UHGV virus genome: UHGV-1592266
DNA length: 17,097 bases
DNA from: a virus
Strand: one strand, 5' to 3'
The notes beneath the pieces were generated by a model. It did no database searches, was not told where the DNA came from, and saw only the letters and a program-made list of their open reading frames with translations. Position numbers and translations under genes: made by a program. Of the stretch, positions 913 to 13,141 are shown piece after piece (position 1 is the stretch's first letter; the number at the start of each line of letters is the position of its first letter).

Positions 913-1257
913 TTACTCCCCTTTACCGGCTGCGGTGACGTTGATGCCAGCGTTATCACAGGCGATGCGGAATGCCGCTTGAAGTTCTCGCGCAACGTGT
1001 GGCACATAGCCGTCGAAGGTTGGCATTTCGACAGTCTTCTTTTCTGCGGCTTCCAGCTCATCCAGCAGCGCCAGCACGGTAGTGGGGTTTGCTGCGGAGT
1101 TCAGCGCGTTCAAGGCAGTGATATCTGCATCAAGCTGAGTTCCTTCTGCCAGTGAGATATCGAAAATGTCATCAGGCGGCATAACACTAAGGCGCTCATG
1201 TGCGCCAACTGCTGCCGCTGCGATTTCACGCAGCGCCTGTTTGTCGATGTTGCTCAT
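913..1257 (-). CDS. Ead/Ea22-like protein, short paralogue (114 aa)
   Basis: MSNIDKQALREIAAAA and TVLALLDELEAAEKK match the N-terminal module of ORF 1523..2590 ([29 protein letters not shown]). The start overlaps the upstream stop as ATGA. Confidence 0.75.
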   Translation of the reverse strand: MSNIDKQALREIAAAAVGAHERLSVMPPDDIFDISLAEGTQLDADITALNALNSAANPTTVLALLDELEAAEKKTVEMPTFDGYVPHVARELQAAFRIACDNAGINVTAAGKGE

Positions 1258-1526
1258 TGGGCGGTTCCTTCGTAACCGATGGCTTCTGCAATTTCAGCAA
1301 GTGTCTCTGCACTTTCACCCACTGGCTCATTCATCCAGTCGAAGGAAACAAGCTTACCGCCTTCGATAACGCCGATGTTGAAATCATCACTACCTTGTGT
1401 TTTCAGACCATGCTTGATTGCCTTATCGCGCTTATCGAAGTCAACGCCGTCTGTCGTGTATTCAACTCCATGGCCTTTCTCGTTGCACCACCAGTACTGC
1501 TGAATAACGATGTATGATTTGCTCAT
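1254..1526 (-). CDS. hypothetical protein, 90 aa
   Basis: Full-length track ORF. ATGA overlaps at both ends tie it into the operon. No family recognised. Confidence 0.65.
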   Translation of the reverse strand: MSKSYIVIQQYWWCNEKGHGVEYTTDGVDFDKRDKAIKHGLKTQGSDDFNIGVIEGGKLVSFDWMNEPVGESAETLAEIAEAIGYEGTAQ

Positions 1527-2590
1527 AGCGCGGCTCCCTGTCGTAACTGGTCGGCGAGTTCGAATTCACCATGGTTAGTAAATTCGCCTGCAAGTTTTTC
1601 TCTTAGCTTCATAACGGCTTCCTTTGCGCTTTCGATATCCTTATGGTGCCCTGCGCTGTACTTCTTCCCGTTAAATTGAACGCTTGCTACATATCGCTTA
1701 TCGCGCTTATTCCAATAGACCCCCTTGACACCAGTGGTGTTATTTTTCTGGGTTGGTTTGTTGAATTGATTCTGCGATAGAGAGCAAAGGCGCAGGTTTC
1801 TTATGCTGTTGTCTTTCTTGATGCCATTGATATGGTCGATAGGCTGGGAAGGCCATTCTCCGTAATGTAGAAGCCATGCTAGACGGTGAGCAAAGCACTT
1901 CTTGCCAAACAGCGAAAAGGCGTAATAGCCCTGCCAAGTTTGAGAGCCAATAATTGCTCCTTCCTGACGACCTGCAAAGTTGACTTTCGCGGTAAGAACT
2001 CCAGTTTCAGGGTTGTAGTCAATAAGGTCTCTGATATCGCCAACAGACATGAGCAGATTCTTATTAAGGATTTCAATTTCCTTCTGGAGTGGTTCAGATG
2101 CCTCACGCCTAACTTCAGCCAGGAAAGCATCGGTGGCTGGGGTTTTGTTATCTGACTCCAGCCACTGGTTGTAGTAATAATCGAACATGCCAGTAGGATA
2201 ACCACATCCGCCGTGCACGTGGTCTTTCATAGCAGAACCACACATGCAGTAGTCATTGTCAGTATTACTAATGATGTTGATAAGTTGCTGTGTCCGTTGC
2301 TTCAACATCGCATTCTCCGCCGCCAGCGCCGAAAACTTCTCGTGTGCCAACTTAACAGCTGCATCAGCCTGCTTAATTGACTCAGTCGCTTTCTGGTGGT
2401 CTTCGGCCAGCCCTGCTAAATCAGCCTCCAGTTCGGCTAGGCGTTCATTTAATGCATCTCGTTCATCCAGTAGAGCCAGCACAACCTGAGGTGTTACTTT
2501 CATACGAAATGCCAGCAATTTTTGAGGTGTTGCTACTGTTTCAATTGCTACTGCTGCCTCACGCAGTACCTGATAGTCAATCTTGCTCAC
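1523..2590 (-). CDS. Ea22-like N-terminal scaffold fused in frame to an HNH endonuclease plus AP2 DNA-binding module (355 aa)
   Basis: GTG start in a GTGA overlap with the upstream stop. Residues 1-165 are an Ea22-like coiled coil with CMCGSAMKDHVHGGCG. Residues ~185-335 read GYYAFSLFGKKCFAHRLAWLLHYGEWPSQPIDHINGIKKDNSIRNLRLCSLSQN (HNH_3 pattern), then TGVKGVYWNKRDKRYVASVQFNGKKYSAGHHKDIESAKEAVMKLREKL (AP2 pattern). The tail ELADQLRQGAAL matches the tail of paralogue 2587..3168. Confidence 0.85.
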   Translation of the reverse strand: MSKIDYQVLREAAVAIETVATPQKLLAFRMKVTPQVVLALLDERDALNERLAELEADLAGLAEDHQKATESIKQADAAVKLAHEKFSALAAENAMLKQRTQQLINIISNTDNDYCMCGSAMKDHVHGGCGYPTGMFDYYYNQWLESDNKTPATDAFLAEVRREASEPLQKEIEILNKNLLMSVGDIRDLIDYNPETGVLTAKVNFAGRQEGAIIGSQTWQGYYAFSLFGKKCFAHRLAWLLHYGEWPSQPIDHINGIKKDNSIRNLRLCSLSQNQFNKPTQKNNTTGVKGVYWNKRDKRYVASVQFNGKKYSAGHHKDIESAKEAVMKLREKLAGEFTNHGEFELADQLRQGAAL

Positions 2591-3168
2591 TGGTTGCCTC
2601 CTTTGCGAAGCTGGTCGGCGATATCTTCGAGAACGCCATCAGAGAATGAGCGGTCAAAATCGCCTTCCGGCGCATTAGCCATAAACTCAGTTGAGGTAAG
2701 AATCATCCGGGCAATATCCGCTGCGTTCTTCGCAGTATCATCAATAAAACCAGCATCCCAGGCAGCCAGCATTCTGTTCGCCACAAAGTAAGCGCCTTCC
2801 TTGCGTGCTTCAGTCTTCACTTCATCCCAAAAAGCGTCGGTGACTTGGGTTTGCGGCATCCTTCCGTCTATTGCGCAGATATACGCATCAGATAGTTCAC
2901 CCTGCTCGCCGTCAAACACGTAGCAACTCTGTACGATAAATTTATTCAGCCACGCATTCTCCACAGCCAGCGCCGCGCACTTGGCCTCAAGGTTATCAAT
3001 CGTGATTCCAGCAGAACGACACTCCCGCAACGCCGTTTCTAGTTTTGATTCAAGTTCACCGAACTTACGGACAAGATATTCAGCGTTTGTTTCGTTAACC
3101 TTTAAATCTCGGGGGATGCATTTACCTTTCAGAAAACCATCCATCTCAATTAGTGACATTTGTTTCAT
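2587..3168 (-). CDS. Ea22-like protein (193 aa from the ATG at 3168)
   Basis: I chose the ATG at 3168 ([11 protein letters not shown]) because it forms an ATGA overlap with the stop of 3165..3329 and has GGAG 9 nt upstream. [33 protein letters not shown] and [12 protein letters not shown] parallel EKFSALAAENAMLKQ, TDAFLAEVRREA and ELADQLRQGAAL of ORF 1523..2590. Confidence 0.75.
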
Positions 3169-3329
3169 TTCTTCCCACTCCGCCACATAGCATTCAGATA
3201 TTTGTTTTGATTCACTGATGGAAAAGAATTTCTCTTAAGCAATTCCTCTCTCGATGGCATTGGCTTTACGCGTTGGCGAATAATCATTTCTGCCGGAAGA
3301 ATGCCGGGATTGTATGCAAGTCCTCTCAT
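3165..3329 (-). CDS. small hypothetical protein, 54 aa
   Basis: Internal ATG at 3329 ([15 protein letters not shown]...) has GAGGAA 6 nt upstream and lies just after the stop of 3340..3636. The longer track start at 3362 would overlap that gene. Confidence 0.55.
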
Positions 3330-3339
3330 GGTAAATTCC

Positions 3340-3636
3340 TCAGTCATTACTGATAGCGCCATAGCGTGAGCGGTAATTACGCAGGCGCGGGTCGATATAT
3401 TCAGGGAATTTGTCTATTGTCGCTTTTCGCAACGGTCTCATTGCTGTTTCGTTTGTTCGGTCCTTCTCATCTTTTAACGCGAGTTGTATATCGCGTCGGT
3501 ACATCCGTTCTGCTTTTGTTTCTGGTGGCAGATCGATAAACGTGTCGAAATTGTTTTTGATATTTTCCAGCACCTCCGCCTTGGAGCTACCGGAACAGCG
3601 GCGCGGGTCATCCGCACCATACATAGGCGCTGGCAT
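3340..3636 (-). CDS. abc2: Abc2-like protein (candidate anti-RecBCD protein of P22-type recombination modules), 98 aa
   Basis: [18 protein letters not shown]... and ...[12 protein letters not shown] match my memory of P22 Abc2. The position downstream of erf fits. The assignment is from memory only. Confidence 0.55.
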
Positions 3637-3659: not shown

Positions 3660-4043
3660 TTAGAAGGGAATTGAATCGTCGTATTCAGGATGATTTTGAT
3701 GATTGCTACTTTGCTGCTGTTGGCTGTTTCCTGAGGTTGCAAATCCAATCTTTGCATTCAGTAATTCAAGAGTGATTGATTGACCATTTTGCCCCTGATA
3801 AACATCAACCCTGATGTTTTCTCCGGTAATTTCCACAATGCCACCTTCAACAAGAACACTACGGTAGTAATCCGCTTGCGCTCCCGGCTTGGCAAATACA
3901 ACGGCGCTGTAGTTTGTCCATTCTTTCTTTTTTGTCTGGCGATCGTAATACTGAACGCCAGCACGGATGTTGAATCCGATATTTTCCCCGGCCTGAAACT
4001 CTCTTGCGGGCTTGTTTAGTCTTACAGTAATCGAATGTGCCAT
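3660..4043 (-). CDS. short phage single-stranded DNA-binding protein (127 aa)
   Basis: The internal ATG at 4043 (MAHSITVRLNK...) overlaps the erf stop as TAATG. A Q-rich linker and the C-terminal tip EYDDSIPF resemble the SSB acidic tail (DDDIPF). Confidence 0.75.
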   Translation of the reverse strand: MAHSITVRLNKPAREFQAGENIGFNIRAGVQYYDRQTKKKEWTNYSAVVFAKPGAQADYYRSVLVEGGIVEITGENIRVDVYQGQNGQSITLELLNAKIGFATSGNSQQQQSSNHQNHPEYDDSIPF

Positions 4044-4648
4044 TAAGCAGCCGCTCCTTCTAATTCGTCTCGTCTGATGTTGTAAACGTCCTGCGCTTTG
4101 TGCTGCTCCGGTGTTCCTTCGAGCATCTTCCACGCTTTGGCGAACGCCTGTTTAAGCTCTTCCACGGTGTTTTTCTGCATTGCTGCGTCAGTGAATGCTT
4201 TTAGAACCTGTTCAGGTGTAGGTGATGGTTTTGATTGCTTTGCTACTGCGTTCTGCTGATGTTTATGCTCGTCTGTATCTGCATCTTTCGCATCATCAAT
4301 GCCGAACAAACCATTGAGGCAATACTTGCGTGCATAAGAGCTTGTAGCTCCCGTAACTTGTGCAGAATCCATCCCTTTCTTGCTTTCTTCCTCTCGTGCA
4401 AGAGCGGTTGCCGTATGACTGTTTTCGCCATCGGTAATAGTTGCCGTGGCTTTCACGTAATACCGATCACCAATCAACACAACTTCATCGCTGATTGATA
4501 AAAACAGGCCATTCAGTAACGGCTTAACGCCTTCAAGAATGTCTTCGCAGCTTCTGTATTTATATTTTCCGAATGAGTTGTACTGATTCTTTGGCGCGTT
4601 CAGATTCTCCTGAATAGCTGCCAGTCTTGCGTAAAATTCTTTGCTCAT
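4043..4648 (-). CDS. erf: Erf-family single-strand annealing recombinase
   Basis: From the ATG at 4648: MSKEFYARLAAIQENLNAPKNQYNSFGKYKYRSCEDILEGVKPLL...VTGATSSYARKYCLNGLFGIDD. This is near-identical to my memory of P22 Erf. Confidence 0.9.
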   Translation of the reverse strand: MSKEFYARLAAIQENLNAPKNQYNSFGKYKYRSCEDILEGVKPLLNGLFLSISDEVVLIGDRYYVKATATITDGENSHTATALAREEESKKGMDSAQVTGATSSYARKYCLNGLFGIDDAKDADTDEHKHQQNAVAKQSKPSPTPEQVLKAFTDAAMQKNTVEELKQAFAKAWKMLEGTPEQHKAQDVYNIRRDELEGAAA

Positions 4649-4658
4649 ATGATTGTTC

Positions 4659-4829
4659 TCAGAATGGACATTCCCCAAGGAAATAACGCTGATTTAATAC
4701 TTCGACTCGGGACAAATTAAGGCATACCCGCATTCCTTCGCGGTCGCCATTATGGCGATACCAGAGAGCTTTCTGCGTGTACATGCGTCTCTGTAACTTG
4801 CTCTCCTTCACTGTGGTTGCAAGTGACAT
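4659..4829 (-). CDS. small basic protein, 56 aa, at the arf position upstream of erf
   Basis: Hand-translated: AAGGAG lies 6 nt before the ATG at 4829. Product MSLATTVKESKLQRRMYTQKALWYRHNGDREGMRVCLNLSRVEVLNQRYFLGECPF, TGA at 4659-4661, 10 nt before the erf start. Confidence 0.55.
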   Translation of the reverse strand: MSLATTVKESKLQRRMYTQKALWYRHNGDREGMRVCLNLSRVEVLNQRYFLGECPF

Positions 4830-5197: not shown

Positions 5198-6166
5198 TTA
5201 GTAGGTTATTTTTGTTGCGAATACTTCGCCTTTTACGATGGCTGTTATGATATTTTTAGCAACATCTTCTGATGCACCAACCTTGATAAGGTCAGCAAGT
5301 ATTTTGTTATTTACTTCTTTCCGGTGAGCTTTATCCTTTGCTCTACGCTCTTCTTCGTCCTTGATTCTTTTTTCTTCTGCTATTCTGGCTTGCTCTTTTG
5401 CTTCAGCCTCGCGCCGGATTCGTTCAGCCTCCTCCTGTGCTTTTCGGCGTTCTGCTTCAATTGCCGCCTGCTTTTCTCTTTCAGCTCGTTCTGCTGCCTC
5501 TTTTGCTTCGCGCTGTGCTCGTTGCTCGGCTTCAATGCGTTCACGCTCTGCACGTTCCGCTGCGGCCTTAGCTTCTGCTTCTCGCCTTGCTGCTGCTTCA
5601 ATTTCGGCTTTTGCCTTTGCTTCGGCTTCTGCTCTGGCTTTCTCTTCAGCTTCTCTTTTTAAGCGTTCTTCATGCTCTCGCTTTTCCTGCTCCGCTTTGA
5701 GTCTTGCCTCTTCTCTTTGGCGGTCAAATTCGCGATCCATCAAAATAGCTATTTCATGGTCAGACTCAATTTGCTTTGCGAGAGCTTCAGCTGCTGCCTT
5801 AGCTTCTTCTTCGGCTTTAATCCGCGCCTGTTCTTCCTCATAATCAGTAAGAGGCTGGCGCGCCTTGGCTTTCAGCTCATCAAGGCGATCACGCACTGTC
5901 TTGCGGTTGGCATCAATTAGCTTTGGAATTTCCTTCAGTTCAGCAACAAGGTCTTTGCCAAGACCATCGAGATATGTTTTCGTCTGCGCAACTTTATACG
6001 CCAGAGAAGCGATCTCCTTTCTGCCCTTTGCCGTTGTGATATCAGGCACAAAGGACATAACTTCACGTTCAACCTTTTGAAGGATTTCTTCAATCTGGTC
6101 GGCAGACTGAAATACAGTCATTGCATTTGCTTTTTCAATAACAACTAAATCTGTTACTTCACTCAT
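5198..6166 (-). CDS. 322-aa protein: globular N-terminal ~120 aa (possibly DUF1351-like), ~170-residue E/A/K/R-rich helix, small C-terminal domain
   Basis: I chose the ATG at 6166 (MSEVTDLVVIEK...) with GGAGGA 4 nt upstream. The longer track start at 6220 would read through the terminator hairpin at 6186..6207. Residues ~125-300 are almost entirely E, A, K and R. Confidence 0.8.
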   Translation of the reverse strand: MSEVTDLVVIEKANAMTVFQSADQIEEILQKVEREVMSFVPDITTAKGRKEIASLAYKVAQTKTYLDGLGKDLVAELKEIPKLIDANRKTVRDRLDELKAKARQPLTDYEEEQARIKAEEEAKAAAEALAKQIESDHEIAILMDREFDRQREEARLKAEQEKREHEERLKREAEEKARAEAEAKAKAEIEAAARREAEAKAAAERAERERIEAEQRAQREAKEAAERAEREKQAAIEAERRKAQEEAERIRREAEAKEQARIAEEKRIKDEEERRAKDKAHRKEVNNKILADLIKVGASEDVAKNIITAIVKGEVFATKITY

Positions 6167-6178
6167 ATATCCTCCGTC

Positions 6179-6207
6179 AAAAAAATTGCCCTCACACTGG
6201 AGGGCAA
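6179..6207 (-). terminator. intrinsic terminator inside the pL operon
   Basis: The minus strand reads TTGCCCTC-CAGTGT-GAGGGCAA followed by TTTTTTT: an 8-bp GC-rich stem (6186-6193 / 6200-6207) and a U-tract (6179-6185). Confidence 0.75.
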
Positions 6208-6298
6208 AGAAGATTTCCAATAATCAGAACAAGTCGGCTCCTGTTTAGTTACGAGCGACATTGCTCACATAGCAGACTCGCAAATCTGCTATAGGTGC

Positions 6299-8192: not shown

Positions 8193-8525
8193 TCAATCGT
8201 AATAAGCTGGAATTGATTTTCCGCGTTGCTTCTGGCGGCCTGAGCAAGTCACACCCATTTCACTGCGTGGCTTGCTGTACCATGTGCGCTGATTCTTGCG
8301 CTCAATACGTTGCAGGTTGCTTTCAATCTGTTCGTGGTATTCAGCTAGCACCGTAAGGTCTATAGGATTCAGTGCGCTTTCTACTCGTGATTTCGGTTTG
8401 CGATTCAGCGAGAGAATAGGGCGGTTAACTGGTTTTGCGCTTACCCCAACCAACAGGGGATTTGCTGCTTTCCATTGAGCCTGTTTCTCTGCGCGACGTT
8501 CGCGGCGGCGTGTTTGTGCATCCAT
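8193..8525 (-). CDS. N: antitermination protein N, lambda type
   Basis: MDAQTRRRERRAEKQAQWKAANPLLVGVSAKPVNRPILSLNRKPKSRVESALNPIDLTVLAEYH... matches lambda N, including the arginine-rich motif. Only the last ~25 residues differ from my memory of lambda N. Lambda-type boxB sites are present at both nut sites. Confidence 0.95.
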   Translation of the reverse strand: MDAQTRRRERRAEKQAQWKAANPLLVGVSAKPVNRPILSLNRKPKSRVESALNPIDLTVLAEYHEQIESNLQRIERKNQRTWYSKPRSEMGVTCSGRQKQRGKSIPAYYD

Positions 8526-8986: not shown

Positions 8987-10339
<1,353 letters not shown>

Positions 10340-10379: not shown

Positions 10380-10448
10380 ATCAAATTAAACCACACCTAT
10401 GGTGTATGCATTTATTTGCATACATTCAATCAATTGTTATCTAAGGAA

Positions 10449-10481
10449 ATACTTACATATGCAACTTACAAGTACTCGCAA
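10449..10481 (-). promoter_or_regulatory. pRE-like CII-activated promoter
   Basis: The minus strand reads TTGCGAGTACTTGT (a TTGC-N6-TTGT repeat, 10468-10481), then 13 nt, then AAGTAT (10449-10454). This is the same geometry as lambda pRE (TTGC-N6-TTGC, 13 nt, AAGTAT). Confidence 0.5.
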
Positions 10482-10737
10482 GAAAGCGAATGCAATTACA
10501 AGCAACATCCTGAATCGAATTGCTGTACGTGGTCAGCGAAAGGTTGCCGACGCGTTAGGGATTAATGAATCGCAAATTTCGCGATGGAAAGATAGCTTCA
10601 TCCCCAAAATGGGAATGCTTCTGGCTGTTCTTGAATGGGGTGTTGAAGACGAGGAGTTGGCGGAACTGGCTAAGAAAGTAGCCAGAATGCTGACAAAAGA
10701 AAAAGCCCCGAAGAACGGCGAATTCTTCGAGGCCTGA
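10459..10737 (+). CDS. cII: CII transcriptional activator
   Basis: Internal ATG at 10459 with the lambda cII SD. GINESQISRWKDSFIPKMGMLLAVLEWGV parallels lambda VDKSQISRWKRDWIPKFSMLLAVLEWGV. Confidence 0.9.
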   Translation: MQLTSTRKKANAITSNILNRIAVRGQRKVADALGINESQISRWKDSFIPKMGMLLAVLEWGVEDEELAELAKKVARMLTKEKAPKNGEFFEA

Positions 10738-10771: not shown

Positions 10772-11416
10772 ATGACATACGAAAATGACAAATTCCAGGT
10801 TCTGAAGAGCATGAAGGTGCCAGATGATTTTAAATCAAATGGCTTTGTTTATGTGCTTTCTAATGAGTGCATGCCAGGAATTTATAAGATTGGGATGACT
10901 AAGCATTCACCAGAAGTTAGGGCTAAAGAAATTTCAGCCTCTACTGGCGTTCCTAAGCCATTTAAGGTGATAGCAGCCTTTCATTCAAATAATCCCGCAT
11001 CAGATGAAAAACTCATGCATAAAGCCTTTGCAAAAGAGAGGCTTAGTGATAATCGAGAGTTTTTCAAGCTTGAAGATAATGAGCTTTCTGAATCTCTAAA
11101 TGAAATAAGGGCGCTGGTTGGCCCTGAAAGAAATGGCGAGACGGCAGAATACGCAATTTACGACTCATTCATTTCTTTTCGCCATGAAAATGAGCTTGAT
11201 CTTAATGAGGAGCTTATAGAGCAAGGTCTGGGTAGTGTAGTTGGTCATCTTCCTGCGGTGAAAAATTTCCTTATTCGCGCCGGAATTGATTACGCGAAGC
11301 AACTGATAAGCAAATATAACTCATCGATAGTTATTAATACAGATGGCAGTGTGGTGATGGTTAAGTCTCTTGAAGCCCAATGCTTTGATGCGGAGGTTGG
11401 AAATGAGCCTGGCTGA
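10772..11416 (+). CDS. T5orf172/MUG113 (GIY-YIG-superfamily-like) domain protein, 214 aa, inserted between cII and O
   Basis: AGGAG lies 5 nt before the ATG. GFVYVLSNECMPGIYKIGMTKHSPEVRAKEISASTGVPKPFKVIAAFHSNNPASDEKLMHKAFAKERLSDNREFFKL fits the T5orf172 pattern. I recognise no family for the C-terminal ~110 aa. Confidence 0.8.
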   Translation: MTYENDKFQVLKSMKVPDDFKSNGFVYVLSNECMPGIYKIGMTKHSPEVRAKEISASTGVPKPFKVIAAFHSNNPASDEKLMHKAFAKERLSDNREFFKLEDNELSESLNEIRALVGPERNGETAEYAIYDSFISFRHENELDLNEELIEQGLGSVVGHLPAVKNFLIRAGIDYAKQLISKYNSSIVINTDGSVVMVKSLEAQCFDAEVGNEPG

Positions 11417-12245
11417 AGTATTTTACCTGTCGAAGAGTGAACCTGTTGAACAGGAGCGAAGAGTGGCTGATATCGATGATGGTTACACCAGATTCGCTAA
11501 CGAGCTGCTGGAAGCTATCGCAAGTGCTGATTTAACCGCTCGCCAGTTGAAAGTTATGCTGGCCTACGTCCGGAAAACATATGGATTCAATAAGAAAACA
11601 GATCGAATAGCCGATGAGCAAATTGCTCAGTTAACAGGACTGTCAAGGCAGAATGTTAACAAGGCTAAAAAAGAACTGATTTCAATGAATTGCCTGTTTA
11701 TGGATGGAAATCAAATCGGTGTAAACAGTGAGGTATCTGCGTGGCAATTCAGCAAGTGTCTCCAAGTTAGCAACTTTGTCTCGAAGTTAGAGACAAAAAA
11801 TGTCTCCAAATTAGAGACACTCAATGTCTCGAAGTTAGAGACACACAAAAGACATTCTTTAAAGACAAAAGAAAATATTAATAAACCCCCTATATCCCCC
11901 AAAAAAGTTTCTCAGAAGTTCGACCCGCTAGAAACAGAGTTGCCTGATTGGTTATCAGCAGAAACATGGTTGTCGTGGGTTACCTATCGCAAGGAGATAG
12001 GTAAGTCGATCAAGTCTAAGCAAAGTGTCACTCAGGCTATCAACGTTCTAAGCAGAAGTCTGGAGAAGGGATATACACCTGAAGAAATTATAAACCAGAG
12101 CATCGCCAGTGGTTGGCAGGGGATTTTTGAACCCAAGACTCCAAAGGGGAAATCTCAACCGAGGCCGCAGCAGCGAGCTATGCAGGAAAACTTTGCCGCC
12201 AAAGATTACGGGCAAACTGAAATGCCTTCATGGGCGCAGGAGTGA
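11403..12245 (+). CDS. O: lambda O-type replication initiator
   Basis: ATG at 11403 follows GGAGGT. DDGYTRFANELLEAIASADLTARQLKVMLAYVRKTYGFNKKTDRIADEQIAQLTGLSRQNVNKAKKEL is the Phage_rep_O N-terminal domain pattern. The iterons lie within the gene, as in lambda. Confidence 0.9.
   Translation: MSLAEVFYLSKSEPVEQERRVADIDDGYTRFANELLEAIASADLTARQLKVMLAYVRKTYGFNKKTDRIADEQIAQLTGLSRQNVNKAKKELISMNCLFMDGNQIGVNSEVSAWQFSKCLQVSNFVSKLETKNVSKLETLNVSKLETHKRHSLKTKENINKPPISPKKVSQKFDPLETELPDWLSAETWLSWVTYRKEIGKSIKSKQSVTQAINVLSRSLEKGYTPEEIINQSIASGWQGIFEPKTPKGKSQPRPQQRAMQENFAAKDYGQTEMPSWAQE
11757..11843. repeat. replication origin iterons (four 19-bp units)
   Basis: TGTCTCCAAGTTAGCAACT (11757), TGTCTCGAAGTTAGAGACA (11777), TGTCTCCAAATTAGAGACA (11801) and TGTCTCGAAGTTAGAGACA (11825). 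Units 2-4 have inverted TGTCTC/GAGACA arms. The spacing is 20, 24 and 24 bp. Confidence 0.85.
11844..11905. other. AT-rich unwinding region of ori
   Basis: cacaaaagacattctttaaagacaaaagaaaatattaataaacc... lies directly after the iterons, the same layout as lambda ori. Confidence 0.7.
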
Positions 12246-12247
12246 AT

Positions 12248-13141
12248 ATGAATACGACAAATGGTTACAATCTGGCACTGCAAAGGCAACTTGTAGACTC
12301 AAAAATCAATGACATTTCTGATCTGAAACAGAAACTTGAGTTTAGCAAAATTGGATCAGCATCAGATGGAATGTCAGTTACCAGCACAGTGGAAGAGTGC
12401 GAGAAACACGGTAAATATACTTCCTATGAGAAATATCTGACCATCTCAGGAAAAAGAATTACTTCAAGTAAATCTGAGTGCCCACAGTGCCTTGAGGAGA
12501 AAATTCGTAAGAAAGAGATTGAACGTGAGCAGGCAGAACAAAGAGCAAGACAATCAAAAATTGAATATTTGTTGAATTCTCTCAATATTCCAGAGAGGTT
12601 CAAAAATTGCACTCTTCAGAATTATGAGCCTGTTAACGATGATGCAAAGCGAGTTCTTAAGGTATGCCAGGCATATGCCAGTAAGTGGCCTGAACGCCTT
12701 CAGAAAGGTGGCGGACTGGTCATGTGTGGTAAGCCTGGAACTGGAAAGAACCACCTTGCACTGGCTATCGCTAGGCACGCCATTATCGAGCATCAAAGCT
12801 CTGTGATATTTACCACTGCGTTGAAAATTGCCAGAGAGTACAAATCAACATGGTCTAAGGCCGCAACCAGAACTGAAGAAGAAGTCATTAGGCAATTTAC
12901 GCATCCTGACTTGTTAATAATCGATGAGGTTGGCGTGCAGTTCGGCAGTGATGCTGAAAAGCTAATCATGTTCGAAATTATCAACACCAGATATGAATAC
13001 ATGAAGCCAACAATCCTGATTAGTAATCAGAGCAAAGATGAACTTTCGGCATTCATTGGTGAGCGTGTTATTGACAGGATGAATGATGGCGGCGGATGCA
13101 CCCTTGCGTTTACATGGGATAGTTACAGGAGCAGATCGTGA
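12248..13141 (+). CDS. DnaC/IstB-like AAA+ helicase loader with an N-terminal Cys/His cluster
   Basis: ATG at 12248 follows GGAGTGAAT. Walker A is GKPGTGKNHLA and Walker B is LLIIDEVG. An IPERFKNCTLQNY motif resembles DnaC. The N-terminal CEKHGKY...CPQC may form a zinc ribbon. Confidence 0.85.
   Translation: MNTTNGYNLALQRQLVDSKINDISDLKQKLEFSKIGSASDGMSVTSTVEECEKHGKYTSYEKYLTISGKRITSSKSECPQCLEEKIRKKEIEREQAEQRARQSKIEYLLNSLNIPERFKNCTLQNYEPVNDDAKRVLKVCQAYASKWPERLQKGGGLVMCGKPGTGKNHLALAIARHAIIEHQSSVIFTTALKIAREYKSTWSKAATRTEEEVIRQFTHPDLLIIDEVGVQFGSDAEKLIMFEIINTRYEYMKPTILISNQSKDELSAFIGERVIDRMNDGGGCTLAFTWDSYRSRS

Follow-up and report, generated by a model that had tools for sequence, protein, structure and literature searches.

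In a stretch of 17,097 nucleotides from the virus genome UHGV-1592266 (the window, throughout its length), we analysed a gene for a 355-amino-acid (aa) protein in which a nuclease and a DNA-binding domain follow a phage Ea22-like scaffold. The account we favour, at a probability of roughly 60%, is that this gene is a member of the mosaic Ead/Ea22/EaE/Oad2 family of the lambdoid ea region, and that its exchangeable C-terminal domain is an HNH_3–AP2 cassette, complete and maintained by selection. Pfam and PHROG profiles confirm the original prediction that the open reading frame (ORF) at 1523–2590 is an Ea22-like scaffold with an in-frame HNH–AP2 module. Mosaic Ea22 C-terminal domains, the nuclease architecture and the abundant, annotated class of such fusions are already known.

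An HNH–AP2 cassette on an Ea22-like scaffold

The nuclease part of the protein is intact. Pfam HNH_3 matches aa 233–275 (E = 1.4e-15; 57.1 bits against a gathering cut-off of 24.8), and phrog_99, 'HNH endonuclease', covers aa 167–351 (E = 6.6e-66). Across an alignment of 147 fused and free-standing relatives, Y192, G197, Y222, H235, R236, W239, D252, H253, N261, N265, R267 and N277 are near-invariant; the conserved HNH residues among them are H235, R236, D252 and H253 (1832–1837), N261, N265 (1796–1798), R267 and N277 (1760–1762), and the catalytic residues, whose decay would have spoken against a working nuclease, are not degenerate. By analogy to I-HmuI, we take D252, H253, N265 and N277 to have catalytic roles. 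An AlphaFold2 (AF2) model of the protein (mean predicted local distance difference test score (pLDDT) 85.7, and above 90 across aa 181–345) places the nuclease and AP2 folds after a linker helix, with a beta-beta-alpha-metal fold like that of I-HmuI (fold match to 1u3e) and, in the AP2 part, the three-stranded sheet and helix of the AP2/ERF fold. A PDB sequence search with the full protein gave no meaningful match. NCBIfam and PADLOC gave nothing beyond noise from coiled coils and one weak match to a 'homing endonuclease'; the protein is therefore not a known defence-system component.

Proteins combining HNH and AP2 domains form a recognised class of homing endonucleases, 'IPA-HNH' (PMC10448857), and the cassette shares with I-HmuI-type nickases and free-standing phage HNH–AP2 enzymes a beta domain, the HNH_3 motif (AHRLAW...IDHING...DN.I.NLR...QN..N) and an AP2 domain in the same order. 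Identity to the free-standing enzymes Bas77_0074 and gp21 of Salmonella phage 64795_sal3 is 38–49% over aa 186–342, the closest reaching 49%. Homology to such enzymes extends over aa 189–341, or DNA 1568–2026, close to the 1586–2038 first proposed for the nuclease. Because the free-standing enzymes align only there, the cassette adds a family-specific linker helix before this core and an Ea22-type tail after it; in the alignment the linker helix is kept in all fused cassettes and missing from free-standing relatives. Unlike the free-standing enzymes, the fused cassette always lies between a hinge, linker-helix and coiled-coil scaffold and an Ea22-type tail, has no ribosome-binding site (RBS) of its own, is strongly conserved, and occurs in early operons of temperate prophages rather than in lytic-phage genomes. 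A crude count by motif finds tandem HNH-like modules in about 30 of 120 free-standing relatives and in none of the fused set. Many free-standing relatives of 250–360 aa (P0281, P0287, P0290, P0296, P0304, P0316, P0320 and others) have two or three such modules, with the upstream copies often degenerate in the DH motif, an arrangement that suggests internal pseudo-dimers. In phage Bas77 (L004 1480–3047), the closest free-standing HNH–AP2 endonuclease lies directly upstream of an exonuclease VIII gene, and related enzymes of other lytic phages also adjoin exonuclease genes.

Between three cassette lineages, about 47% of third codon positions differ (53% identity), while aa identity stays at about 91%. 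Nei–Gojobori estimates of dN/dS, the ratio of non-synonymous to synonymous divergence, are 0.015–0.03 for the cassette and about 0.03 across its linker, HNH and AP2 parts; dS is saturated, which makes these ratios upper-bound-like estimates and leaves their direction unambiguous. The proportion of non-synonymous differences (pN) is 0.013–0.018 in the HNH segment and 0.007 in AP2. By these measures, the cassette is a maintained protein under strong purifying selection and not a decaying homing gene.

At the other end of the protein, Pfam Ead_Ea22 (PF13935) matches aa 2–88 (E = 8e-9; 36.6 bits against a gathering cut-off of 27) and phrog_368 covers aa 1–168. AF2 models aa 34–110 as a single 77-residue helix (pLDDT about 90), and the heptad a/d periodicity score was matched in only 10 of 2,000 shuffles. 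A 29-residue hinge/linker helix spans aa 151–179, and pLDDT falls below 50 at aa 115–132, within a Cys/His-rich segment that is replaced by different Cys-rich modules in other family members. Such middle modules are common in the family: examples from the window (2194–2260, aa 111–132), P0006, P0041 and P0046 read NDYCMCGSAMKDHVHGGCG; HGFVRCNCCGDELMCH; VCPNCSHEEP; EYCRRECED. They may be small zinc knuckles.

Lambda and Stx-phage Ea22 proteins consist of an N-terminal segment, a coiled coil and a variable, mosaic C-terminal domain, and full-length Ea22 is tetrameric and pro-lysogenic (PMC10834534, PMC7093339); the lambda tetramer has a central coiled coil (PMC10834534). The 355-aa protein follows the same three-part plan: after a short N-terminal stretch come a putative coiled coil in the centre and a variable C-terminal domain. 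It shares the K/R-G-x C-terminal ending, and its gene likewise sits in the early-left operon, flanked by the recombination genes on one side and xis/int on the other. Where lambda Ea22 has an 80-aa alpha/beta dimer domain, or DUF551, the 355-aa protein has a 195-aa nuclease and DNA-binding cassette, and it adds the Cys/His-rich middle and a TPATDAFLAEV hinge that are both missing from lambda Ea22.

The fusion gene lies in the leftward early operon. The gene is translated by coupling to an upstream family member, whose last codons hold its Shine–Dalgarno (SD) sequence and whose TGA stop (2587–2589) overlaps its GTG start (2588–2590) as GTGA. The anti-SD duplex energy is −11.6 kcal/mol at the GTG start, compared with no stronger than −6.6 at internal starts. 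Separate expression of the nuclease from an internal start or RBS, raised in the original prediction, found no counterpart in anti-SD energies or in a promoter scan: M181, the sole Met just before the nuclease, has an energy of −1.5 kcal/mol, leaving the nuclease without an RBS of its own, and no promoter-like site that could serve it occurs on the minus strand between window positions 700 and 3700. The HNH–AP2 fusion is thus one gene, predicted to encode a single polypeptide.

Domain replacement between the hinge and the tail

The upstream neighbour was proposed to resemble the 355-aa protein at three points, and BLASTP recovers these at aa 47–102, 149–164 and 344–352, each weak alone (E = 0.03–0.15). 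The homology is real and the two ORFs are paralogues in a mosaic family, because both match the same four PHROG profiles (368, 614, 492 and 14548). As had also been proposed, the neighbour carries something unrelated at the nuclease position, namely a 76-aa C-terminal domain after the hinge. Its length of 193 aa likewise stands: the ATG at 3168, part of an ATGA overlap with its own upstream gene, is its most likely start.

The position of the cassette can be read from a comparison with phage mEp213, whose gp35 is 97% identical over aa 1–161; its next 54 aa form an unrelated C-terminal domain, closed by a tail of the same kind. Near-identity (99%) to mEp213 DNA stops at window 2113, within the hinge; the cassette-less hinge region of mEp213 gp35 reads ...ACCCCAGCCACCGACGCTTTCCTGGCTGAAGCGCGGGCGCAT.... 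Homology to nuclease cassettes of other (Salmonella) prophages spans from 2143–2157 to 1519–1548 and overlaps the mEp213 match in the hinge codons. The cassette therefore seems to replace a C-terminal domain between two conserved joints and not to be an insertion. Of 267 family proteins collected, 164 have the hinge motif, and codon alignment shows its DNA core ACCCCAGCCACCGAYGCTTTYCTGGCTGAAG to be common to cassette-plus and cassette-less alleles. DNA-level constraint on the hinge was considered and rejected, with synonymous changes in 5 of 11 codons relative to L014; the hinge is conserved mainly as a peptide, and its DNA identity is only modestly raised.

The second joint coincides with a translation signal. 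Within the tail lie an in-frame SD sequence (GGGAG, 1534–1538) and an ATGA stop/start overlap (1523–1526) for the next gene, and from 1537 onward the DNA is again 100% identical to other prophages. Each of 12 distinct gene ends compared across the family carries, 7–10 nt ahead of an ATGA or GTGA overlap, an SD-like motif in frame (AAAGGAG or something close to it). The ending ...R-K/Q-G/E-x-x-x is this SD-like sequence in translation, the next gene typically opening ATGAGCAA; the 355-aa protein, which ends ...QLRQGAAL, has the family's basic-Gly-x ending. Lambda ea22 (L022 1345–1360) also keeps the signal: it ends AAAGGAGAGTGA and is followed by a 5-codon relic ORF. The K/RGE ending of Ea22 proteins has been called a motif of unknown significance (PMC7093339); on this comparison of gene ends, its role as ribosome-binding and coupling signal for the next gene explains it. 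The QLRKG-type tail is shared between the window paralogues because it doubles as the RBS of the next gene. In phage HK446 (L023), a 20-codon relic ORF (VSKIDYQALREIAKHQRLTE*) of an Ead/Ea22 N-terminus lies just downstream of gp27, the mark of a deletion whose joint falls on the gene boundary usual in this family.

Behind the hinge, family members carry at least 21 unrelated clusters of C-terminal domains, mostly of 40–105 aa and unannotated, of which the HNH–AP2 cassette is the largest. In turn, prophages of Salmonella, Enterobacter, Citrobacter and E. coli have more than 25 different modules, N-terminal and middle, in front of the cassette; at loci with unrelated 5′ halves the cassette is 92–97% identical in DNA, beginning exactly at the hinge. 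The original prediction's alternative, Ea22-like modules carrying different heads, fits this diversity better than capture of a homing gene does; its further suggestion that the family would be recast goes too far, as the mosaicism is published (PMC10834534, PMC7093339). A HMMER search of 1.84 billion representatives with aa 1–165 found 241 relatives, with matches breaking at about aa 50, 72–84, 98–105 and 163. The expectation of Ea22-like N-termini fused to other enzymes was not borne out: Pfam on the best 147 of these 241 gave only Ead_Ea22 (53) and DUF551 (8).

Fused cassettes occupy the slot after abc2 and DUF2737. Relatives in Salmonella enterica (P0006 and P0007, 312 aa, 'endonuclease / HNH endonuclease'), Enterobacter and Citrobacter share the cassette (about 91% aa and 80% nt identity), hinge, tail and slot. 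These relatives also share an 84-nt coiled-coil segment with the window (2309–2392, 92% nt identity), and differ in the N-terminal head, which has no Pfam Ead_Ea22 match, and in the middle module. P0006 is indexed in 623 collection blocks and always follows abc2 and DUF2737 in P22-like prophages. The fusion class is thus common and named 'endonuclease' or 'HNH endonuclease', as had been allowed for, though without the known role that was supposed to accompany it. Shared modules also lead automated annotation to label nuclease-less relatives 'HNH endonuclease': a 172-aa family member in E. coli WEM25 (WP_190811884.1; L002 3624–4142, minus strand) is RefSeq 'hNH endonuclease' without HNH or AP2, a name probably transferred from fused relatives sharing its N-terminal and hinge modules. 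No DNA match to the cassette occurs in 5,426 complete E. coli genomes, and a scan of one genome per species yielded, in a Companilactobacillus genome, no more than a partial match at 48%; the prophage is not among the representative genomes.

One member of the family is reported to act in anti-defence. HK446 gp27 is Oad2, an inhibitor of the P2 OLD defence described in a 2026 preprint, which also states that fusions of its relatives with an HNH homing nuclease or with EaD/Ea22 occur (bioRxiv 10.64898/2026.07.10.737580). Oad2 and the 355-aa protein belong to the same mosaic family and share the hinge, the tail and, as a locus, the slot directly after DUF2737; hinge and tail motifs are all that the proteins have in common, and the Oad2 C-terminal domain, presumably the OLD-binding part, is absent from the 355-aa protein. 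The upstream paralogue is closer, being about 97% identical to Oad2 over the first 73 aa and 48% overall, with a different C-terminal domain. In the E. coli protein P0002, an Oad2-like N-terminus is joined to the window's exact cassette.

Genomic setting

The window corresponds to a lambdoid prophage's early region (Table 1). The genes cIII, kil, erf and abc2 share the orientation of the 355-aa gene, with N, cI, cII, O and P upstream of it, and the leftward early (PL) order is N ... cIII, kil, erf, abc2, DUF2737, paralogue, 355-aa gene ... DUF551 ... int, with a series of small translationally coupled genes past DUF2737. The 355-aa gene thus has the location usual for Ead/Ea22-like genes, in the early-left operon after the recombination genes and before xis/int. 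Identical contigs from two human-gut metagenome samples carry int, ybhC and ybhJ-like genes past the left end; this flank therefore suggests an Escherichia-type host, and from the E. coli map we assume integration at the lambda attachment site.

Table 1. Positions of the 355-aa gene, its parts and other genes in the window
Feature	Position	Strand	Description	Basis
Whole gene	1523..2590	−	355 aa, GTG start; Ea22-family scaffold and HNH-AP2 C-terminal cassette	ORF list, Pfam, PHROG
Shine–Dalgarno AAAGGAGG of the 355-aa gene	2597..2604	−	Within last codons (R-K-G-G) of upstream paralogue	Sequence read
Ead/Ea22 N-terminal signature and long helix	2261..2590	−	aa 1-110; putative coiled-coil oligomerisation module	
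Variable Cys/His-rich middle module (NDYCMCGSAMKDHVHGGCGYPTG...)	2150..2260	−	aa 111-147	
Hinge motif KTPATDAFLAEV (TPATDAFLAEV)	2111..2146	−	aa 149-160; recurrent recombination joint between scaffold and C-terminal cassette	
Linker helix (REASEPLQKEIEILNKNLLMSVGDIRD)	2027..2110	−	aa 161-188	
N-terminal beta domain and HNH_3 nuclease	1751..2026	−	aa 189-280	
AP2-type DNA-binding domain (GVKGVYWNKRDKRYVASVQFNGKKYSAG...) and helix	1565..1750	−	aa 281-342	
Ea22-type tail FELADQLRQGAAL	1523..1564	−	aa 343-355 and stop	Sequence
Upstream paralogue	2587..3168	−	193 aa; own N-terminus and C-terminal domain; coiled-coil, hinge and tail motifs common with 355-aa protein	
Downstream gene	1254..1526	−	90 aa, translationally coupled, phrog_26897	
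Third family member	913..1257	−	114 aa, Ead_Ea22 N-terminus	Pfam, E = 2.5e-17
DUF2737	3165-3362		Leftward operon	
abc2	3340-3636		Leftward operon	
erf	4043-4678		Leftward operon	
N	8193-8525	−		
cI	9388-10020	−		
cII	10399-10737	+		
O	11370-12245	+		
DnaC-like P	12230-13141	+		

The 90-aa downstream gene is not a nuclease-specific partner, because it also follows alleles without HNH in other prophages. A relative of it (L024 1347–1619; 81% identical over 130 nt) is a RefSeq 'antitoxin' in E. coli ET665. A conserved downstream immunity or antitoxin partner was rejected as a candidate, the downstream gene differing in every cassette lineage, as was an HK97 gp74-type packaging HNH protein, from which the 355-aa protein differs in subfamily, in location (an early operon and not beside terminase) and in its AP2 domain. 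No homologue of HK446 gp33, the OLD trigger, is present at window 4659–4829. A 340-aa ORF at 5198–6220 (minus strand) contains an extended repeat region of highly charged character, rich in Glu/Ala/Lys/Arg (EAEAKAKAEIEAAARREAEAK...), and has no Pfam match; its relatives are labelled 'TolA' or 'cell envelope biogenesis protein TolA' in some records.

Competing explanations and implications

The strongest competitor to a maintained family member is a selfish cassette that cuts cassette-less alleles and is copied into them by repair, with the hinge and the tail/next-gene start as homology arms and the scaffold serving only for expression. Much of the pattern would suit it: cassette-plus and cassette-less alleles occupy the same slot and share the hinge, including its DNA core, and the tail; the cassette follows many different N-termini and is joined to them exactly at the hinge; the enzyme belongs to a recognised homing class (PMC10448857); the phage's own Erf recombinase is adjacent; and an HNH element inside a phage gene has a precedent, there read out of frame (PMC11855218). 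We nevertheless consider it possible rather than probable. The cassette replaces another C-terminal domain and interrupts no continuous gene, no empty-site allele was seen among the family proteins (short post-hinge tails are fragments), and the pattern calls for no nuclease action, since the ordinary mosaicism of lambdoid phages at conserved sequences on gene boundaries accounts for it. Spread among the three lineages, which differ at about half of third codon positions, must be old, and the top matches include no degenerate or frameshifted copy except P0114. The proposal that a homing endonuclease had been captured in frame is accordingly right in that the enzyme is intact and in frame; replacement rather than insertion, the lack of translation signals of its own, purifying selection and a nearest free-standing relative at only 49% identity tell against the rest.

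It is improbable that the protein is instead a nuclease-independent DNA-binding regulator on an oligomeric scaffold, silencing a host or rival-phage gene or, like lambda Ea22, biasing the choice between lysis and lysogeny. By pN, no part of the cassette is more conserved than AP2, AP2/CapR domains serve as sequence-specific DNA-binding modules in CasPR anti-CRISPR repressors, DNA-binding domains of homing endonucleases serve as phage repressors (10.64898/2026.02.23.707548), and lambda Ea22 is pro-lysogenic (PMC7093339); yet the HNH segment is itself very strongly constrained, and D252, H253, N265 and N277 are near-invariant in fused and free-standing relatives alike. We can practically dismiss an error of assembly or sequencing, and likewise a chance joining of two genes in recent times that has no function as a single protein. 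The same 355-aa protein (P0001) was recovered from European Nucleotide Archive samples ERZ1745642 and ERZ918551 and from one uncultivated virus genome (UViG) in IMG/VR, and this identical ORF in independent assemblies settles the earlier concern over a frameshift; intact orthologous fusions are present in hundreds of genomes, and dN/dS is low across all three cassette parts.

Several observations count against a maintained HNH–AP2 member of the Ea22 family. The Pfam AP2 match at aa 286–335 (E = 1e-5, 26.1 bits) is under its gathering cut-off of 33.3, despite a good match in fold. A clear heptad signal is confined to aa 40–75, and the hinge/linker helix has none. Strong conservation would fit an actively homing selfish element too. 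No relative of the cassette above 49% identity (and none at 60% or more) occurs in 50,697 isolated-phage records. The common Salmonella fusions have no Pfam Ead_Ea22 N-terminus, so that 'Ea22 scaffold' in the strict sense fits only the window allele, whose exact protein is rare (4 contigs and one UViG).

If the protein is a maintained fusion, its N-terminal Ead segment and 77-residue helix may oligomerise it, as suggested by the tetrameric state of lambda Ea22 and by the heptad signal in aa 40–75. I-HmuI alone is a strand-specific nickase. Oligomerisation would bring two or more I-HmuI-like heads together, and paired AP2-targeted heads could nick both strands or bridge two sites; tandem modules in about a quarter of free-standing relatives and none of the fused set are suggestive, fitting the idea that head pairing matters. 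The enzyme would act on DNA early in infection or induction, from a locus that is a hotspot of recombination and anti-defence genes, and its possible substrates include rival or resident related phages and the recombination substrates of the adjacent Erf/Abc2 system. A link to recombination is plausible because the closest free-standing relative adjoins an exonuclease VIII gene and the fused genes follow erf and abc2.

A broader and decidedly speculative view, which we hold to be doubtful, is that the Ea22/EaE/Oad2 family works as a plug-and-play platform: a coiled-coil stalk that oligomerises would carry exchangeable heads for phage–host and phage–phage conflict, and the HNH–AP2 head would be either a domesticated, multimeric targeted nuclease against defence loci or rival lambdoid phages, or the driver of its own cassette exchange at the hinge. 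If true, the self-exchange variant would be an in-frame, scaffold-dependent homing system, unlike introns, inteins and free-standing homing endonuclease genes. The functions of the ea/exo-xis accessory region of lambdoid phages are largely unknown, with Oad2 reported to act in anti-defence and lambda Ea22 biasing lysis–lysogeny. A strongly conserved enzymatic head gives this family an assayable predicted activity, DNA nicking or cleavage by an oligomeric HNH–AP2 protein, and lets the role of the stalk in multimerising its heads be put to the test.

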